Shown here: in pieces, positions 15,023-24,654 of the stretch
How positions within the stretch are numbered: the first letter of the stretch is position 1
How the letters are laid out: every line of letters begins with the position of its first letter
Assembly: GCA_963664705.1 (NCBI GenBank)
Contig: OY761556.1
Span: forward strand, 6,144,001 to 6,208,000
Direction of reading: 5' to 3'
DNA from: Acidobacteriota bacterium
Lineage (GTDB): Bacteria; Acidobacteriota; UBA6911
DNA length: 64,000 nt
Notes under the pieces: model-generated
What the model was told of the DNA's origin: nothing
Seen by the model: only the letters and a program-made list of their open reading frames with translations
Database searches by the model: none
Translations under genes and position numbers: made by a program

Positions 15023-16480
15023 TCAGTTTGCCCGCTTCAGAATTTCAAGCAGGAATTGCCAGAAGCGTTCCACCGTATCGATATAGATTTTTTCGTCCGG
15101 TGAATGAACGGCTTCAAGCGTTGGGCCCATCGAAACCATATCCATTCCTGGAAAGCGTTCGCCGATGATGCCGCATTCCAGTCCGGCGTGAATGGCTTTC
15201 ACTTCGGGGTCTTTCCCGTAAAGCGCTCGGAACGCAGTTTTCGCAGTCGCGAGGATTGGCGAATCCATATTCGGCTTCCAGCCCGGATAGGCATCCGTGT
15301 GGCCGACCTCGGCTCCGCCTAATTCGAAAACGAAAGAGACGCTTTGGGCGATCTCCGCGATTTCGGAGGCCACCGAACTGCGCTGGCTGGTCGCAATCCG
15401 GATCGTGTCTTTGATCGTTTTCACCACGGCGACATTGGTGGATGTTTCCACCAGCCCCGGGATGTCGGCGCTCATTTTGATCACACCGTGGGGAAGAGAA
15501 GCGATGGTCTTCAAGATCTTCTGCTGTTCTGCTTTTCGGATGACCTTCCACTTCTTCCGTGAATTGAGTTTTTCGAACGAAACTGCAAGGTCCGGTTCGA
15601 TCGTCGACAGTTCGGCTTTTACGGTCGCCGCGATCGCTCCCACGATGCGGCCGGCTTCCTCTGCTTTCTTGACCGGCACAAGCAATACGGTTTCGCTTTC
15701 GCGAGGAATTGCATTATGTTTGTTTCCGCCGTCGATGGAAGCAAGGCGGGCGCCAGCCGGATCGAGAGCCAGGAGTATTCGGTTCAGGATTTTGATGGCG
15801 TTGCCGCGTCCTTTGTCGATATCGAGGCCGGAATGACCTCCCTTCAATCCGGAAATGCGGAGCTGCATCGGGATCATCGACGCGCCTGGCTCGTCGAAAT
15901 GGAGCTTCCATGTTCCAAGCGTGTCTTTGCCGCCTGAGCAGCCCACGTAGAGAGCCCCCTCTTCTTCCGAGTCCATGTTCAATAATGTTTTGCTCTCGAG
16001 GAAATCCGGTTGGAGATTGGCTGCCCCGGTCAGTCCCGTTTCTTCGTCAACCGTGAAGAGCAACTCCAGGGGACCGTGTTCAAGCGTGCGGTCTTCCATG
16101 ATTGCCAGGCTGGTTGCTACCGCAATCCCGTTATCCGCGCCGAGGGTTGTTCCTTTGGCCATCAGGATATTTCCGTTCCGGACGAGCTCAATCGGGTCCC
16201 TGAGGAAATCATGAACGGTATCTTTGTTCTTTTCGCAGACCATATCCAGATGGCCCTGCAGGGCGATTGAACGTGCATTCCCCCGGTTTGCAGAGGCCGG
16301 TTTTCGAACCACAACATTTCCAAGTTTGTCGGCCTTGGCTTCGAGACCCAGTTTTTTGGCTGTGGCAAGAACATATTTCGTAATGGCAGTCTCGTTTTTC
16401 GAGCCGCGAGGAATGCGCGAGATCTCGGCAAAGTACTTCCAGACCAGTTCAGGTTTCAAACCTTTAATTGCGGTGGACAT
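15023..16480 (-). CDS. pepD: Aminoacyl-histidine dipeptidase (M20)
   Basis: LQGHLDMVCEK, TLGADNGI, DEETG, GGHSG, IHAGLECG and HSPDE. Confidence 0.95.
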   Translation of the reverse strand: MSTAIKGLKPELVWKYFAEISRIPRGSKNETAITKYVLATAKKLGLEAKADKLGNVVVRKPASANRGNARSIALQGHLDMVCEKNKDTVHDFLRDPIELVRNGNILMAKGTTLGADNGIAVATSLAIMEDRTLEHGPLELLFTVDEETGLTGAANLQPDFLESKTLLNMDSEEEGALYVGCSGGKDTLGTWKLHFDEPGASMIPMQLRISGLKGGHSGLDIDKGRGNAIKILNRILLALDPAGARLASIDGGNKHNAIPRESETVLLVPVKKAEEAGRIVGAIAATVKAELSTIEPDLAVSFEKLNSRKKWKVIRKAEQQKILKTIASLPHGVIKMSADIPGLVETSTNVAVVKTIKDTIRIATSQRSSVASEIAEIAQSVSFVFELGGAEVGHTDAYPGWKPNMDSPILATAKTAFRALYGKDPEVKAIHAGLECGIIGERFPGMDMVSMGPTLEAVHSPDEKIYIDTVERFWQFLLEILKRAN

Positions 16481-16655
16481 CGGTACCTCCTCCTCAACCT
16501 GCGAGGACCTGGATTAGGTTTCCTGACAGCCGGCAATGGCTGTCAATATATATAGACGCTTCAATGATAGCCGATTCTCAGGTGCGCGATCAGCATCTTT
16601 GTGATAATACATTGAAATCAACATATCACGGCTCGTCCGGTTGGGAGAAAACGCT

Positions 16656-18437
16656 ATGGCACAGACATCGGCTCAAGCCCGTACATCACGCACCGTAACA
16701 GTCCTTGACCCCCGTGGGCAGCCCACGGCGGTAGTGCAGCCTTTACCGCTCGCACCCAGGCTCAATACGCTGGATGGGAAGACGGTGTATATGGTGGATA
16801 TTGGGTTTGGCGGCGGCTACGACTTCCTGGAGGAAGCGGCTGGCTGGCTGTACAGAAATATTCCTGCCATCAAGATTGAGCTTCGGCATAAGCGGGGGAA
16901 TATGTTCCTCGATGATCCGGAGCTTTGGGTGGAGATAAAGGACAAGGGAGATGCCGTTATTTTCGGCGTTGGTGGCTGAGATGGCTGCACGGCGAGTGTC
17001 GCCGATCATTGCAGAGTCCTCGAAACGAAATATGGCGTTCCCACCGCTCCCATGGCCAGTGCACGATTTGCGGAGTTTGCCGCAACGGATGCCTTGAACC
17101 ACGGGATGAGTCTCCGGTTTACCTTCCCTCCTTACCCTCTCGTGGGAAGGCCTAGGGAAGTATTGCGGCAATACGTGGAAGGCAGGGATCCTGTCACGGG
17201 GAGGCCGTTGATGCCCCAGGTCGTGGATGCATTGACGCAGCCGCTGACCGAACCCGAGAAAAACCCACCGGCACGAAGGGGCGCCTCCAGGCCGCGGCTG
17301 TTGGCACCGGATACGGAAGAAAACCTGAGGCAGCTCTTTCTGGAGAATGACTGGACGGATGGACTGCCTATCATCCTGCCGACCGAAGAGCGTGTCGAGC
17401 ATATGTTGACCGGAACGGCTGCCGATCCAACCGAGGTCGTCGGGCGAATGACTATTACCACCCTCCAGGAAAAGCTGGAGTATACGGTGGAGAAGGTCGC
17501 GGTGAATGCTGTAATGGCAGGAGCCGGCCCGGAGCATTTGCCTGTAATCCTAGCCCTGGCCGCCAGCCAGGAAGGATCGATGCCGAGTTCGACGACATCC
17601 TTTGCCCGCATGGCATTCGTAAATGGGCCAGTCAGGGATGAGATTGGGATGAACTGCGGCCTGGGAGCGCTGAGCCCGTTCAATCATGCGAATGCCGTAA
17701 TCGGAAGGGCATGGACGCTGATGACCATCAATCTGGGTGATTCCAGGCTGGGCGAGACGTTCATGGGTTCGACCGGCAGCCCGATGAACTATAACAACAT
17801 GTGTTTCGCGGAAAATGAGGAAAGAAGCGTTTGGGAGCCCTATCATGTGCGCAAGGGTTTCCGGAAGGATGAGAGTGTTATCAGTATCTTCCGGGGTTGG
17901 AGCGCCATTAACAGCATGGGAGCCGCCGGCTGTTGCCGTCCGGCCCACGAAGAAATGCTGATGCTTCTGCAGGCATTCCCGGCATTGACTGGTGCGATCA
18001 CTTTTGTCATGGATCCGCTGGTTGCCAGGCATTTGAAAGAACAAGGATTCCACTCTCCACTCCAACTGGGCGAGTGGATCTCGAAAAATTTCAAGATGAC
18101 CGTCGGGCAGTACTTTGGGTCCGACCTTGTGTATTCTTTTGGCAATCCCCTTGCCAGGGACGGTGTCGAGCCGTATGCGTCCTGGTGGAAGCTGCCGAAA
18201 GATACTCTTATCGCACCCTATCTCCGGCCGGAGCTCATCGATTCCGTGGTCGTCGGCGGGGAAACCCAGGCGCTATGGTTTACCACGGACATGAATTGGA
18301 CGCAGACTCTGTCGATTGACAAATGGCGCCCCAAGACGGGCATTTATCAAAGAGATGAGCAGGCGGAACGGCGTCGCTATGCGCGTCAGAAAAGGCACGC
18401 CGCAGCCCTGAATGCCAGCGGCTACGATTTGAAGTAA
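16656..18437 (+). CDS. UGSC-family-like selenoprotein (593 aa; Sec at codon 108, TGA 16977-16979, U-D-G-C motif)
   Basis: ORFs 16641..16979 and 17052..18437 are in the same frame, separated only by TGA. Readthrough gives DAVIFGVGG-U-DGCTASVADHCRVLETKYGVPTA; the C-terminal domain has WTDGLPIILPTEERV. GGAG RBS before ATG 16656. Confidence 0.85.
16980..17014 (+). promoter_or_regulatory. Bacterial SECIS-like stem-loop
   Basis: Lower stem CTGCA (16985-89)/TGCAG (17010-14), upper stem CGGCGA (16990-95)/TCGCCG (16999-17004), apical GTG with its G 17 nt after the UGA. Confidence 0.7.
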
Positions 18438-18451
18438 ACGCTGCAATACGC

Positions 18452-18484
18452 GAAATCCGCGGCTGACACAAAGCCGCGGATTTC
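18452..18484. repeat. REP-like palindrome (family A variant), possible bidirectional terminator
   Basis: GAAATCCGCGGCT...AGCCGCGGATTTC perfect 13-bp inverted repeat between convergent genes. Confidence 0.6.
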
Positions 18485-19502
18485 ATGCATTATTTTTTCC
18501 AACGATTTCGAGCTGAAATCCGCCCAGTTGATTCTGGGTGGCAAAGTAGCATGCCGTGACGGCATGATCTTTGATAGTCGCCCTGAATTCGGATTCAATG
18601 CCGGCCCTTTTCATTGCACCCACGACTTCGGCATAATCCCCCTGAATCCCGAAGCTCACATGCTGGATGCCATTTCCCTTCCTGTCCAGGAATCGTTGAT
18701 GACAGCCGCCCGGCCGTATTCCGATGGGCCGGATTACTTCAATTTGAAGATCTCCCAGAGAGCCCATTGCGAAAGCGACATCCAGGGACTCCATTTCCGG
18801 TGCCTGAACCGGTTTCTCATCCATGTAGGCATCGATAAGGTTGGGGGGGCCGTAGTCATAGGTCCAGCCTTTTATGCCCAATAGCCTCTCGAATCCCTGG
18901 GCCGCGCTCTTCTCATCCTTTACCACGAGGCCAACCTGGTTAATCTTTTTTCCACCTGAAAGGATGGGATGGTCCATTCTGGCAACGCCGGGGCCATCAG
19001 GCAGCACAACGCCAACCTGTTCGATATATCTCTTGCCCGATGCGCCCTCCGGGCTGGCAAACTCAATCCTGCACCCGAGTTCGTCGGTTGTATCCATTAT
19101 TGAAAAGCGCGAGCTATGATCACAATCTCCCTGCATTTCGAGGCTGACGCCCGCATTGGTCAGCGCGCTCACCACGGCATCGTGATTTTGCAGCGTGCCC
19201 AGACCGATTGTGTAGAAACCTTCGCCGCTTTGCTCGAGGAATTCCGAGTAGGCGCATCGGCCCGATACCGGTTGGATCAACTTAATGGACCGGCCTCCAA
19301 AGTTTCCGATGGCCATGCGCATATCACAGCCTTCATCCGTTTGATGATTGTGAAGGATGGTATTGCTGAGACGAAGGGAGTAGAGCTTCAGGCGTACTCC
19401 AAAAATCTGGGCAAAGCGTTTGGCCGTTTTCTCGGCATCCTTAACCACCACGCTGAACTGAACAATCTTTTCATGACTCAGATCTACAACGCTGTTGCCC
19501 AT
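18483..19502 (-). CDS. Tandem-domain VOC (methylmalonyl-CoA epimerase/glyoxalase-like) protein
   Basis: Two repeats beginning IVQFSVVVKD and INQVGLVVKD; QIEVIRP, FLDRKGNGIQHVSF and QLEIV in the second domain. Confidence 0.85.
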   Translation of the reverse strand: MGNSVVDLSHEKIVQFSVVVKDAEKTAKRFAQIFGVRLKLYSLRLSNTILHNHQTDEGCDMRMAIGNFGGRSIKLIQPVSGRCAYSEFLEQSGEGFYTIGLGTLQNHDAVVSALTNAGVSLEMQGDCDHSSRFSIMDTTDELGCRIEFASPEGASGKRYIEQVGVVLPDGPGVARMDHPILSGGKKINQVGLVVKDEKSAAQGFERLLGIKGWTYDYGPPNLIDAYMDEKPVQAPEMESLDVAFAMGSLGDLQIEVIRPIGIRPGGCHQRFLDRKGNGIQHVSFGIQGDYAEVVGAMKRAGIESEFRATIKDHAVTACYFATQNQLGGFQLEIVGKNNA

Positions 19503-19670: not shown

Positions 19671-21461
19671 ATGGCTAACAGTTTATACTCACTCCGCCCC
19701 GACCATTCTTCTTCCGGAATCACCGGGGCACAGATATTTGCAAAACTATGCAAGGATGAAAACTTGCCCGCCCTTTTCTGTGCAGCCGGTAATTACCACA
19801 TCATCAATGCTATCTCGGAGACGGGGATCCCTTGCTACGGTGGTCGAACCGAAGGTGGGATGTGTGCCGCCGCGGATGGATTTGCCAGGGTGACCGGCGA
19901 AGCGGTCGCCTGTTCGGGGACTGAAGGCCCGGGGCTTACCCATATGATGATGAATATTGCCTGTGCCCATGCAGCCAATAGTCCGCTGCTCGTGCTGGCC
20001 AGCAATTCAAGCCTGGCTGCTGAAGACTGCTACAGTTTCATTCAATTCATGTACCAGCAGCCGCTGACGGAAGGCATGCGGAAATATGGGAAGAGAATCA
20101 CCGTGCCAAGCCGGATCTATGAATATGGCGCTGCCGCTTTCAGAAATCTGAAAACCGGCGTACCGGACGTCGTGCACCTCGATTTTCCTCTCGAGGTCGT
20201 GACCCATCGTTTTGCAGATGCGTCCGAACTGGAGCGCTCCTACGACAAAGGGCGATACCGCAGCGATTCCCGGGCGTATCCGGGCAGCAAGGAGCTCCAA
20301 CAGGCTATCGAAATGATCAGCAAGGCCGAACGCCCCGTCCTGATTGCCGGACACGGGATTTTTGTGCGCAAAGCCTGCGACGCGCTGCTGATGGCCGCGG
20401 AAAAACACGAAATGGCTGTGGTGGGTTCGGGCCCGGTTCGGGGACACTTTCCCGATGACCATCGCCTGTCCGGGAGCATGTCCAACGAAGCTTTGATGAA
20501 TGCGGACCTGGTGGTTTTCGTCGGGCAGTACTCGATGCCGCTGCCTGAAGAATGGACATTGCCGCGTGGCGTGAAGACCATACGCGTGCATCCGGAGCAG
20601 GGAGACCTGGGGCGCAACTGGCCCGTCGATCTGGGAATCGTGAGCGACGAAGCTGTATTCATGGAGGCGCTGGCAAACGGACTTCCAGGTAAAAAAAGGG
20701 ATTCCTGGGTGGGGGAGATTGCTGCTGCAAGGCGCCGATGGGAAGAAGCCCAGATGGGACTCTATACCCAGTTTCTCAAATACAGCCGCGATACCAATTC
20801 GCTTCATCCTTTTGTTCTATGCAAAGAAGTCCATGATTTCCTGTACAAAGGCGATATCGATCCCAAACAGACGGTCACCGGGTGGGGCGGAAACATGATC
20901 GGGTTCGGAGCCATGCGATGGCTGCGTGCCAACAGGCCCGGGCAGGAAGTCACGGTCGTGTACCAGTTCGGTCCCATGGGACCGGATCTTGCCATGATGA
21001 TGGGTCCAGCGGTGGCTATTCAGCAAGGCATCGGGCCGCATGCTGCCTATCAGGGCGCACCTGTTGTGGTTGTGACCGGAGATGCCGGCATGGCGTACAG
21101 CCTTCTGGAACTGGATACTTTTGTGCGATACAAGCTCCCGGTAATCTGCATTGTATATAACAATGACTGCTGGGGCACTTTTACCTTGGCAACGGATACC
21201 CCCGGGGCGTTGCATATGTATATGTTCCAGGAAGGCCTGCGCTACGACAAGATGGCCGAGCAGCTTGGCGTTCGAGGCGAGTACGTGCGGACCCCCGAGG
21301 ATCTACGGGCGGCTTTGAAACGCAGCTACGATGCCGCGGGAAGACAGGGGCTCTCGACGCTGATCAACTGCCAGGGGATTAAGGAATTCAACCTGCCTGA
21401 AGCGTATCCACCAGGACTGGATTTTTCGCCGGAGCCTGGAATCGGAGCCATTCGCCATTAG
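19671..21461 (+). CDS. Thiamine-diphosphate-dependent enzyme (acetolactate synthase / 2-hydroxyacyl-CoA lyase superfamily)
   Basis: RTEGG catalytic Glu, AADGFARVTG, GPG, and the GDA-x24-NN ThDP motif. Confidence 0.9.
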   Translation: MANSLYSLRPDHSSSGITGAQIFAKLCKDENLPALFCAAGNYHIINAISETGIPCYGGRTEGGMCAAADGFARVTGEAVACSGTEGPGLTHMMMNIACAHAANSPLLVLASNSSLAAEDCYSFIQFMYQQPLTEGMRKYGKRITVPSRIYEYGAAAFRNLKTGVPDVVHLDFPLEVVTHRFADASELERSYDKGRYRSDSRAYPGSKELQQAIEMISKAERPVLIAGHGIFVRKACDALLMAAEKHEMAVVGSGPVRGHFPDDHRLSGSMSNEALMNADLVVFVGQYSMPLPEEWTLPRGVKTIRVHPEQGDLGRNWPVDLGIVSDEAVFMEALANGLPGKKRDSWVGEIAAARRRWEEAQMGLYTQFLKYSRDTNSLHPFVLCKEVHDFLYKGDIDPKQTVTGWGGNMIGFGAMRWLRANRPGQEVTVVYQFGPMGPDLAMMMGPAVAIQQGIGPHAAYQGAPVVVVTGDAGMAYSLLELDTFVRYKLPVICIVYNNDCWGTFTLATDTPGALHMYMFQEGLRYDKMAEQLGVRGEYVRTPEDLRAALKRSYDAAGRQGLSTLINCQGIKEFNLPEAYPPGLDFSPEPGIGAIRH

Positions 21462-21532: not shown

Positions 21533-22549
21533 TCACCTGCCGGAATCCGGAGTCCAGCCATTGCCGAGTCCATAAGGCAGCGTCACAAACGGCGCAGCCT
21601 CCACGTGGTAAATCAGGCCTTTCCTGATTCCGAAGGTTTCCATGGTAACCAGGTTTTGCAGCATCCCCGGAGGATCGTCGGGTTTGGCGCCACGGCGCGT
21701 GCCGTCGTGGACAAAGAGCGGGAATGTTGCAACGATCTGCTTCTCTTCGTCGACCACCAGGACTCGTCGCGGGCGGATGTGCTTCATGTAGGCGAATGTC
21801 TTTTCGTTGATCTGCTGTTCGCAAGTCAACATGCTGAATCGCAGCATTTCCCGGCCTTGCGGTGTGTCCGCGGTTGGCATGAATGGTGCCGGCATCATCC
21901 GACCGCCGGGCGGCGCATTATTCACCGTCTGATAGCCATTTTCGTGACGGACGCACTCTTTGGCAAAGGCGCCGATTTTACCGCTGTCCCCTTCCAATGC
22001 GTCAAAATAGGAATTGGCAACGCGGATGAGCATATCCCTTGAGGATCTTTCGGCCGGCGGAATGTCAGTGGTCAGAATCGGCTCCGGCGTGGTCAGGAGC
22101 GGTATTGCCGCATCGTTGATGCTGCGATCGTAGAGCTGCTCGATTTCCTGGATCCTTCCCCTGTCAACCTTCAGTCGAACCGCGACCAGCGCATTCTGCC
22201 CGCCGATCTTCAATCTGGCTTGCAGCGCAACCTGGCCGGCATCCGGATCCGCAATATAAATCCTGAAGGTCGTGGGTTCCACTTTGGATCGCCAAAGCAT
22301 GCCCTCTCCGACGCTCATTACCCCCGTGTTTTCCGTCATCCGCACGTCGATAGTCATCGGTGGAACGACCTTGGGATCGTGCTTATAAATAGCATCCATA
22401 TAGCCATTCATAATGCCGATCAGACAGTTTCGGTCACACGGCTTCTGATTTGCCGGATTCCAGTCCGGTTCACCTGCGACCGCGGGATTTGAAGCTACGC
22501 AGCAGAACAACAAGATCATTCCAAGTGCAAGTAAGTATGGTGCCCGCAT
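21533..22549 (-). CDS. Secreted hypothetical protein, CDRxCL family (paralog of 29226..30326)
   Basis: Signal peptide; CDRNCL, MTENTG, CVRHENG, IRPRR and PYGLGNGW motifs. Confidence 0.8.
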   Translation of the reverse strand: MRAPYLLALGMILLFCCVASNPAVAGEPDWNPANQKPCDRNCLIGIMNGYMDAIYKHDPKVVPPMTIDVRMTENTGVMSVGEGMLWRSKVEPTTFRIYIADPDAGQVALQARLKIGGQNALVAVRLKVDRGRIQEIEQLYDRSINDAAIPLLTTPEPILTTDIPPAERSSRDMLIRVANSYFDALEGDSGKIGAFAKECVRHENGYQTVNNAPPGGRMMPAPFMPTADTPQGREMLRFSMLTCEQQINEKTFAYMKHIRPRRVLVVDEEKQIVATFPLFVHDGTRRGAKPDDPPGMLQNLVTMETFGIRKGLIYHVEAAPFVTLPYGLGNGWTPDSGR

Positions 22550-22590: not shown

Positions 22591-24654
22591 TTACTGCAAT
22601 TTTTCCCTGTGTGAGTCAATGTAAAGGCCGATGGCAAGAAGCACAAACATGATCAACCCGAGCCAGTTGCTCCATCCCTGCAGCCACGGGCCCAAAAGTT
22701 TTGTGAGGTCCGGCACTATCGTGACCTTCCAGGAATCCTCTATAAATCGAAGCAGAGCCGCCAGTACTCCGACTAGCGCCCCTCCCGCGATAAAGCCGGA
22801 AGCAATCAAAGTCCCTTTCTCGTGGCGAGCCTTATTCAAATCCTGATTCCTGGACGAGCGCTGGAGAAACCACGCAACCGCAGCGCCGAGCACCAGGGGG
22901 GAGTTGAGCTCCATTGGGAGGTACATTCCAAGAGCAAAGGCAAGTGCCGACACTCCGCACATAGCCATGACCACGGCAAAAACCGCGCCCAGCGCATACA
23001 GGAACCATGGCGCACCTTCTGCAGCCATGACGCCGCGCAGCACGGCGGCCATCGCATTCGGCTGTGGCGCCGGCAGGGGATTCGGATGCCCCGGGCCGGG
23101 AGCAAAGCCGTAGACCTTCGACATGAGCAGGATCACTGCCGTTGTCGCCGCGGATGCGGCAATGGAGCCGACTATATTGCTGATCTCGATCTTTTTCGGA
23201 GTGGCGCCAAGCCAGTATCCGATCTTGTATTGGGTGACAAGCGATCCCGACATCGAAAGTGCTGTGCAGACCACGCCGCCGATCAATAGAACCTGAAGCA
23301 TTCCGGATTCACCGCTCAAACCGAGAGAGGACAAAGCTACAGCGGTTACAATCAGTGTGGTCAGCGTCATCCCGGAGATCGGAGTGATGGAGATCATTGC
23401 GATTGCCCAGGCCGAGACCGCCGCAAACAGGAATGCAATGATGAGCGTCAGGAGCACAGAGATGAATCCGATCCTGGTCGCTCCCGGAGTGCCTGTCAGC
23501 ACGGAAAAGCGGAAATACAGAAATATCAGAATTGCTGTCGCGGCGATGCCGAGCATGACTGCCGACATCGGCAATGCGCGGTCGGTCCGGTCAATGGTAT
23601 TGTCCACGCCCTTCTTTTGCACCAGTCGGACAATCTCGCCCATGGCCTGGCGTGTCGCCTGCACGATGACTGGAGACATTTTTATGATCGAGATGATTCC
23701 AGCCGCGAAAATACCCCCGATCCCAATGGGGCGAACATATTGGAAGAACAGATCCTCCGGCGGCATCTGCGCCAGCGGAATGGCTCCGGCAGCAAGGGCA
23801 CCCGGGATGTACTGGCCGAGATAGGCAAACAATGGCACCAATACGAAAAACGAAACGAACGATCCGGCCAGAATGATGGATGCGTATTCGAGGCCCATGA
23901 TGTATCCCAGTCCCAGAACCGCGGCCGAGGTGTTCATGGTGAATACCGCTTTGTATTTGGACGTGAAGCCCTGAAGCGAGCTGATCGCGCCGGTGGAAAA
24001 ATTTTCCGCCCATGCCCGCATCGAAGGACCTGCAAAGTCAAACAATGCTGCCACGACTGCGGAATAGCTCAAAACGATGGCGCTATGCCCGCCGCGCTTT
24101 CCGGCCATCAGTATTTCGGTGGTGGCGCGCGCTTCCGGGTATGGCAGTTTGCCGTGCAGATCGCGGACGAAATAGCGTCTGAAGGGGGCGAGAAAAAAGA
24201 TCCCAAGGAATGCGCCAAGCAGCGGGACCAGGAAAATCTGAAAGAAAGAGGACCTGTTCTCGAGCCCAAGAATATAAATGGCCGGCATGGTGAAAACGGA
24301 GCCGCCGGCCACAATTCCGGCGGTTGCGCCCACGGCGAGCACATTGACGTTTTCGAGCAGCGTCGAAGCCCGGCTCTTCATGAACTTGACCGCAAAAACA
24401 GAGAACCCGACGGCCAGGACGGAGATCGGGATCGCCGATTCAATTCCTTGCCCCAATTTCAGCGCGATGTAGGTTGCGGCAGCAGAGAAAATGATCGACC
24501 AGGTGAAGCCCTGTACGATTGATCGAAGCGTGACTTCCGGCGTGATGGTTCCTGCGGGGATCACCGGAGCATAGGTCTCCCCGGGATTGAGTTCGCGAAA
24601 CGCATTTTCCGGAAGGCGAACATCATCCAAATTGGGGGGCGGGTTTTGCGTCAT
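22591..24654 (-). CDS. OPT-family oligopeptide transporter
   Basis: PEVTLRS, LKLG, SAIPIS, LPYPEA, LGATPKK and PAPQ motifs; many TM helices. Confidence 0.93.
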   Translation of the reverse strand: MTQNPPPNLDDVRLPENAFRELNPGETYAPVIPAGTITPEVTLRSIVQGFTWSIIFSAAATYIALKLGQGIESAIPISVLAVGFSVFAVKFMKSRASTLLENVNVLAVGATAGIVAGGSVFTMPAIYILGLENRSSFFQIFLVPLLGAFLGIFFLAPFRRYFVRDLHGKLPYPEARATTEILMAGKRGGHSAIVLSYSAVVAALFDFAGPSMRAWAENFSTGAISSLQGFTSKYKAVFTMNTSAAVLGLGYIMGLEYASIILAGSFVSFFVLVPLFAYLGQYIPGALAAGAIPLAQMPPEDLFFQYVRPIGIGGIFAAGIISIIKMSPVIVQATRQAMGEIVRLVQKKGVDNTIDRTDRALPMSAVMLGIAATAILIFLYFRFSVLTGTPGATRIGFISVLLTLIIAFLFAAVSAWAIAMISITPISGMTLTTLIVTAVALSSLGLSGESGMLQVLLIGGVVCTALSMSGSLVTQYKIGYWLGATPKKIEISNIVGSIAASAATTAVILLMSKVYGFAPGPGHPNPLPAPQPNAMAAVLRGVMAAEGAPWFLYALGAVFAVVMAMCGVSALAFALGMYLPMELNSPLVLGAAVAWFLQRSSRNQDLNKARHEKGTLIASGFIAGGALVGVLAALLRFIEDSWKVTIVPDLTKLLGPWLQGWSNWLGLIMFVLLAIGLYIDSHREKLQ

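Follow-up and report, generated by a model that had tools for sequence, protein, structure and literature searches.

In a window of 64,000 nucleotides of an Acidobacteriota genome (the whole stretch of DNA analysed here), two apparent open reading frames, 16641-16979 (112 aa) and 17052-18437 (461 aa), share one frame, and the TGA at 16977-79 is the sole stop in 593 codons. The question raised by this locus is whether that TGA ends a gene or encodes selenocysteine (Sec) within a longer one, as an earlier note on this DNA had proposed, and what the resulting protein would do. The following elements are considered first.

16656..18437, + strand: predicted gene for a 593-aa selenoprotein (UGSC/Unknown_1 fusion) without signal peptide, from translation and comparison with the family and homologues
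16643..16647, + strand: Shine-Dalgarno-like GGGAG, 8 bases 5' of the ATG at 16656, its function assigned from sequence
16977..16979, + strand: in-frame TGA predicted to encode Sec108, where helix 109-124 begins, from translation, homologue alignment and structural model
16986..16988, + strand: Cys111 of the U-x-x-C motif, predicted resolving cysteine, conserved in 32 of 35 paralogues, among them every one of the 31 TGA copies
17052..17054, + strand: internal ATG (Met133), a false start taken by gene callers, with Met in 10 and Ile in 8 of 18 orthologues

Translation of 16656-18437 (+) reproduced the read-through context GVGG-U-DGC-TAS, and the open frame extends 16 codons further upstream of the ATG at 16656 (609 aa in total). 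This ATG is preceded by GGGAG, whereas no Shine-Dalgarno-like run was found in the bases before the internal ATG at 17052, as had been noted. Between the called ORFs, the 24 codons show the substitution pattern of coding sequence, with 64, 41 and 194 mismatches at the three codon positions across 18 orthologues, namely the window copy and 17 Acidobacteriota loci, which are kin to one another (L017 and L019-L023 were excluded as other clades). Across 23 related loci from named genomes, TGA occupies the Sec column in 18 (20 genes, as L007 and L010 each contribute a second copy) and TGC in four alphaproteobacterial ones, with the column uncovered in the last; within the genome itself, 31 of 35 paralogues have TGA there. 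A natural full-length fused form of 556 aa carries Cys at residue 108 (P0122). The suspicion that standard gene callers would split the gene also proved sound, since the best 120 listed database homologues are all 407-479 aa long and cover 68-81% of the query. These fragments, along with the 49 of 150 representatives that begin just past column 108, suggest that mis-annotation of this family is the rule.

Immediately downstream of the TGA lies a candidate insertion element:

16985..17014, + strand: bacterial SECIS hairpin with its upper stem-loop at 16990-17004 and a GUG loop, from folding, conservation and published criteria

The hairpin pairs as first described, with CTGCA (16985-89) against TGCAG (17010-14) and CGGCGA (16990-95) against TCGCCG (16999-17004) around the loop GTG (16996-98), and the loop G is indeed the 17th base past the UGA. 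A published bacterial SECIS model (PMC13188914) specifies a loop of 3-9 nt, an upper stem of 4-16 bp, a G in the first two loop positions, a spacing of 16-37 nt and a minimum free energy of at most -7.5; the hairpin here has a 3-nt loop starting with GU, an upper stem of 6 bp, a spacing of 16 nt and an energy of -16.1 kcal/mol (upper zone -9.1). Its folding energy is modestly above chance (z -1.55, with 14 of 200 shuffles equally good; p 0.055 against synonymous-codon randomisation). Its conservation is far above chance: within the single alignment of 18 orthologues, third codon positions are fixed at 5/5 upper-hairpin codons vs 0/19 of the remaining codons that separate the TGA from the internal ATG. 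In 26 of the 31 TGA copies among the paralogues, the hairpin at +10 to +33 exceeded the synonymous null in stability (12 at p < 0.05), and the mean z was -1.28 vs -0.23 in 155 control windows. Covariation across 12 paralogues was not better than in shuffles when one fixed register was imposed; the paralogue hairpins occupy different registers. Rfam returned no match. Five paralogues with a literal UGSC motif (L053:4304, L054:3250, L055:4495, L057:5076 and L058:5095) have no short post-UGA hairpin; a longer stem folds in them, possibly another SECIS type, in which no covariation was seen.

The genome also holds two each of selA, selB, selC and selD: the selA, selB and selD genes all score above cut-off, one of the selD genes contains a TGA of its own, and the two tRNA-Sec genes differ from each other. 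These form two sets, a compact selB-selA / selD-selC cluster and dispersed second copies (G000:C1:3072596-3078309, 3461753-3463159, 3657352-3659262, 2046792-2047820 and 6559014-6559112). The compact cluster adjoins genes that we take to resemble a corrinoid methyltransferase system, as well as a Sec-bearing methyltransferase-like gene. A single selB was found in 5/5 relatives tested (11-45 UGSC matches each), which suggests that the compact cluster may be acquired; a doubled machinery as a requirement of the family's expansion was rejected on the same count, all five relatives being expanded. Two tRNA-like elements were also seen, a weak one of 72 nt whose anticodon is read as TCA and which is not an Rfam tRNA-Sec match (G000:C1:1625651-1625722, -), and one of 90 nt without clear anticodon (G000:C1:2597966-2598055, +). 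Taken together, a family domain that spans the TGA, Cys or TGA at this column in homologues, the SECIS and the Sec machinery indicate that UGA 16977-79 almost certainly encodes selenocysteine and that the two apparent ORFs are one gene.

The window gene is one of 35 family copies in its genome, 31 of which have TGA at the same column followed by x-x-Cys. These paralogues share a median identity of 33%, with one pair at 99%. The expansion to tens of UGA-bearing copies is genus-wide: 18/18 same-genus genomes have 9-43 family matches and 12 other genomes of the class 0-2, counts that fragments can inflate, and among 150 other genomes of the phylum 12 have matches, 1-2 each (up to 21 candidates scored per genome), both tallies counting one unpublished genome (G028) among the zero rows. 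The matches to PF24696 in the five relatives number 11-45 each, with one relative at 45, and most have one TGA. An assembly artefact was rejected as the cause, given the median identity of 33% and the similar expansion of relatives; the genome is rated 6.2% contaminated. Two 99% identical paralogues 2.8 Mb apart, each with a small partner gene (G000:C1:3995147-3996931 and 6758057-6759841), represent either a recent duplication or an assembly repeat. No published account of a genus-wide UGSC expansion was found, in a search whose scope excluded PMC12013261 (Haft and Tolstoy 2025), Deng et al. 2026 and the BSepDB website and supplements.

In a quick tree (SH-aLRT only), the paralogues fall into several deep clades among which proteins from elsewhere are interspersed, and some branches show recent bursts; the window copy groups with one-per-locus orthologues. 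Export signals were predicted at the N-terminus of ~29/35 copies and ~28/31 TGA copies, one of them twin-arginine-like, by a hydrophobicity heuristic plus inspection; the window copy has none. On these sequence features, the window copy is probably cytoplasmic and present at about one per genome among orthologues. Four of the 35 paralogues have neither Sec nor Cys at residue 108, and Cys stands there in 12 of the 36 full-length representatives (150 examined) that span the column without a stop, a set in which some rows are frameshifted or poorly aligned; the four, together with the other 24 of the 36, suggest that some members work without the motif. The four Sec-less paralogues (L037:3881-7677, L052:3928-5595 and L060:3778-5508) include a divergent pair beside two DHDPS-like genes; one lies beside beta-keto-acid cleavage and CoA-transferase genes, and another downstream of a 4Fe-4S/aldehyde oxidoreductase pair.

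Including the 31 family copies, the genome has at least ~40 Sec candidates, the nine others being SelD and eight from a self-homology screen, which gives a lower bound and most of whose 137 rows are repeats or shadow frames. By their motifs, the eight are presumably FdhA, two MvhD-like, two rhodanese-like, one arsenite-methyltransferase-like and two DUF1573-like proteins. A de novo Sec-gene finder based on coding score recovered 14/31 known copies among 442 candidates and was discarded. Two related frames from the TGA screen, with a W-G-TGA-P-E-T-V-D context (G000:C1:2556299 and 6721260, both +), could reflect either a repeat or an as yet unknown Sec site. The published top ten selenoproteomes comprise 46-63 genes and include no Acidobacteriota (PMC13326102, section 11); at ~40+ selenoproteins for this genome and 45 UGSC-domain matches for one relative, these bacteria come near that range.

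The predicted protein consists of two domains:

16698..17183, + strand: UGSC domain (PF24696, residues 15-176), predicted flavodoxin/Rossmann-like, from Pfam, structural model and profile comparison
17286..18335, + strand: 'Unknown_1' domain (residues 211-560), without Pfam family or structural match, recognised by its motif block

UGSC was among the most abundant selenoprotein families of an ocean survey (255 sequences), where a thioredoxin (Trx)-like fold was suggested for it (PMC2398784), and a 2026 review still lists it as uncharacterised. The assignment to this family in the earlier note is well founded, as PF24696 matches across the TGA with 70 bits vs a gathering cut-off of 25. On NCBIfam NF041046 (equivalog cut-off 125) the protein reaches 49.9 bits, and the Cys form P0122 (64) and a literal-UGSC paralogue (82.2) also fall below, which suggests that such fusions lie outside this narrow model. 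In the full-length structural model (pLDDT 83.6, pTM 0.85), a helix begins at Sec108, within a domain predicted to be flavodoxin-like, not thioredoxin-like. Foldseek returned weak alpha/beta matches such as CheY, WrbA and SIS domains, none at E 0.001 and for a query extending beyond the N-domain, with no thioredoxin among the matches listed; likewise, no thioredoxin Pfam family was found in 33 aligned family members.

A more specific likeness came from profile comparison. Aligned with hhalign, the N-domain of 35 paralogues matched 13 proteins of PF07355, the family of selenoprotein B of glycine/sarcosine/betaine reductase (GrdB) and of D-proline reductase (PrdB), with a probability of 91% and a pairwise E of 1.1e-6, scoring 47.2 over 72 columns centred on UxxC vs 11.0-20.4 for 20 column-shuffled controls, and 34.5 with all Cys masked. 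Counting against this likeness, the window protein alone reached only E 0.097 with the GrdB-like profile, and no PF07355 match was found in the window protein, the 33 aligned members or the genome. From these sequence profiles, we consider it very likely that the motif-bearing part of the UGSC domain (~70 columns) is remotely homologous to GrdB/PrdB.

The proposed two-domain fusion of UGSC and Unknown_1 was borne out, having already been described in 2008 (PMC2398784); by eye, the Unknown_1 motif block of Fig. S1A in that paper is present in residues 282-335. Conserved residues of Unknown_1 are D235, T243, E279, S312, T313, S315, N346, R351 and E386. The domain has a confident predicted fold, for which structure comparison matched no solved structure. 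PF09338, for the pyruvoyl-bearing partners GrdE/PrdA, was not found in the genome, and Unknown_1 compared with one PF09338 protein, as a single template, gave a profile probability of 2%. In the four alphaproteobacterial Cys forms the split falls near residue 205, at the domain boundary and not at 108, and in P0274 Unknown_1 is fused to an AhpC/TSA domain in place of UGSC. Besides this redoxin fusion, other Unknown_1 architectures (P0216, P0239, P0251, P0256, P0269, P0274) include apparent tandem doubles of ~710-740 aa without UGSC and a 1226-aa form with a copper-amine-oxidase N-terminal domain.

Around the window gene, four flanking genes were annotated:

15023-16480, - strand: beta-Ala-His dipeptidase (above cut-off)
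18483-19502, - strand: two-domain glyoxalase/VOC protein
19671-21461, + strand: thiamine-pyrophosphate enzyme
22591-24654, - strand: OPT transporter

Only a few close relatives share them: L003 has the VOC, thiamine-pyrophosphate and peptidase genes, L002 the first two and L004 the peptidase alone of these three. Synteny is lost beyond close relatives, and the flanking genes were not adopted as part of the selenoprotein system. The window also encodes, at 21533-22549 (-), a 338-aa exported-looking protein without Pfam or NCBIfam family; it belongs to a set of ~25 related genomic copies, of which 6 lie no more than 5 kb from a UGSC paralogue. Elsewhere, a thioredoxin-reductase-like gene adjoins the family gene in 6/6 loci not labelled Acidobacteriota (313 and 283 bits on TIGR01292, cut-off 343); such a gene is absent from 17/17 Acidobacteriota loci, and the genome's one match lies 54 kb from the nearest paralogue. 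In two alphaproteobacterial loci (L020 and L023), a glutathione-transferase-family gene lies downstream of the Cys form.

Within 5 kb of paralogues we found 6/22 aldehyde:ferredoxin oxidoreductases (1.45 expected), 5/19 xanthine-dehydrogenase-family subunits, 4/16 carboxylesterases, 8/37 TonB-receptor-like genes and 4/12 MFS genes; the P values of these enrichments are inflated because the seeds were chosen from the neighbours themselves, and we treat them as leads only. Beyond the UGSC family, other families are expanded in the genome as well: aldehyde:ferredoxin oxidoreductases number ~22, Mo subunits of the xanthine-dehydrogenase family 19, carboxylesterases 16 and tannase/feruloyl esterases 13. 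A small exported protein of ~185 aa (L039:5434-5997 and seven relatives, e.g. G000:C1:379675, 2644075, 6765650 and 6855013), one copy of which matches DUF4352, sits directly beside a family gene in 8/9 copies; the window copy has no such neighbour. Complex prediction for one paralogue's post-UGA part with this neighbour scored 0.47 (best control 0.00), which weakly supports the pairing: the mark is reached by 116/157 solved and 2/215 mismatched pairs, and at 0.60 or below by 18 solved pairs and both mismatches. The runs agree in at least 0% of contacts, with a partner pLDDT of at least 79.

As for function, our preferred reading, on which our confidence is evenly divided, is that the 593-residue product would act as a single-chain Sec-dependent reductase of a small molecule, working like GrdB/PrdB. 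PMC11229817 describes how the Sec of PrdB attacks the alpha-carbon of proline bound on PrdA, after which an electron carrier regenerates the enzyme. By analogy, the Sec108 selenolate would attack a small substrate held by Unknown_1, which would take the part played by GrdE/PrdA; Cys111 would then release the product by forming a selenenyl-sulfide, to be re-reduced by a donor of the thioredoxin/thioredoxin-reductase type. The diverged, mostly exported paralogues may take various substrates from outside the cell, a role plausibly linked to the many aldehyde oxidoreductases that the genome encodes. The retention of Cys111 in 31/31 TGA copies is as expected of a resolving residue, and the reductase neighbours at six loci and the redoxin fusion of P0274 point to recycling. 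Counting against the reductase reading, Unknown_1 has no detectable kinship with GrdE/PrdA and the likeness to GrdB spans only ~70 columns; the 12/36 full-length non-TGA representatives with Cys at 108 also speak against a strictly redox family, and against thioredoxin-type recycling stand the Acidobacteriota loci, which have no adjoining thioredoxin-reductase-like gene.

Two other functions deserve weighing, each of which we consider unlikely. The selenoprotein could be a general thiol-disulfide or peroxide oxidoreductase acting on proteins, in the manner of thioredoxin or Dsb, with Unknown_1 choosing its clients. The UxxC motif, the Trx-like fold proposed for UGSC (PMC2398784), the thioredoxin-reductase-like neighbours and the exported look of most paralogues would all fit such a role, but the topology predicted is flavodoxin-like, the Foldseek matches listed include no thioredoxin, the motif region resembles GrdB/PrdB, and 35 copies at a median identity of 33% would better fit many small substrates than a housekeeping redox function. 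Alternatively, it could be a binding or scavenging protein in which Unknown_1 binds a small ligand and Sec or Cys traps electrophiles or metal(loid)s so that they are taken up or detoxified. Consistent with this are the 24/36 full-length non-TGA representatives without Cys at 108, the predicted export signals in ~29/35 paralogues and the TonB-receptor-like (8/37) and MFS (4/12) genes within 5 kb of paralogues, albeit from biased seeds; a mere trap is harder to reconcile with the retention of Cys111 in all 31 TGA copies, or with reductase neighbours and a redoxin fusion that suggest recycling.

The earlier note had itself envisaged a second site in a GCC motif; in the corresponding reading, electrons would pass to it from UxxC:

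17931..17936, + strand: Cys426-Cys427 (the GCC of the earlier note), confined to the closest orthologues

We regard this relay as highly improbable. The pair is retained in the six closest orthologues (L001-L006), but it is missing from more distant ones and adjoins a loop predicted with low confidence (421-425), and C426 and C427 each occur in 1/35 paralogues and in 5/24 and 5/64 filled rows of a wider alignment; a GCC site was therefore rejected as a family feature. Of that note's account, the read-through, SECIS, UGSC assignment, split calling and fusion stand, the last as a result known since 2008, and the second site is not supported. Least credible of all is that the TGA is a true stop, separating two genes or marking a pseudogene, or that another tRNA decodes it as Trp or Cys: gene callers do split all of the best 120 listed homologues and ARAGORN does report a weak third tRNA (72 nt, TCA anticodon), but TGA is held at one column in 31 paralogues of 33% median identity and in 20 genes elsewhere, the wobble bases of the SECIS are invariant, the supposed second gene has a start codon that varies among orthologues, and the 72-nt element is absent from the Rfam tRNA-Sec matches.

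Returning to the proposed Sec-dependent reductase, the family is known but functionally orphan, and what goes beyond a routine annotation fix is its expansion throughout the genus to tens of Sec copies, most with predicted export. This expansion is invisible to ordinary annotation because the genes are cut in two. A broader reading, which we put forward as doubtful, is that a single genus of uncultured Acidobacteriota has evolved dozens of Sec-dependent reductases, most of them exported, as an undescribed family, each member combining a GrdB-like Sec domain with a new-fold substrate domain, possibly with a self-made electrophile at the S312-T313-x-S315 loop, and that these, along with ~40 Mo/W aldehyde oxidoreductases, would act as a Stickland-like redox system on organic compounds from outside. 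If so, these bacteria would be a hidden selenium sink, with selenoproteomes among the richest known. The fused single chain offers one protein to express and assay, and the likeness to GrdB/PrdB a specific chemistry to test.

Among known systems, the closest is the UGSC/Unknown_1 fusion itself (PF24696, NF041046; PMC1976440, PMC2398784), with which the window protein shares a PF24696 match above cut-off, UxxC, the Unknown_1 block and an orphan function, while differing in its motif (UDGC, not UGSC), in falling short of the NF041046 cut-off and in having Ala290 where the published Unknown_1 has a marked Cys. With GrdB/PrdB (PF07355) it shares UxxC at a strand-helix junction followed by a helix and an E-x-x-G-x-P-T strand; unlike in GrdB/PrdB, the partner domain is fused and has no detectable relation to GrdE/PrdA, and the third GrdB cysteine (UxxCxxC) is missing. 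Thioredoxin-fold UxxC selenoproteins (Trx-like, Prx-like) likewise have their redox motif at a helix start and, in some lineages, thioredoxin-reductase-like partner genes, whereas the topology predicted here is parallel alpha/beta and flavodoxin-like. Finally, a large selenoproteome is shared with selenoprotein-rich bacteria such as the Olavius delta-1 symbiont and Syntrophobacter (PMC13326102, Table 2), but about three quarters of the candidates in the window genome come from one family; in the Olavius symbiont dataset (PMC1976440), the largest selenoprotein families have 2-12 genes and UGSC one, vs 31 TGA copies in the window genome.
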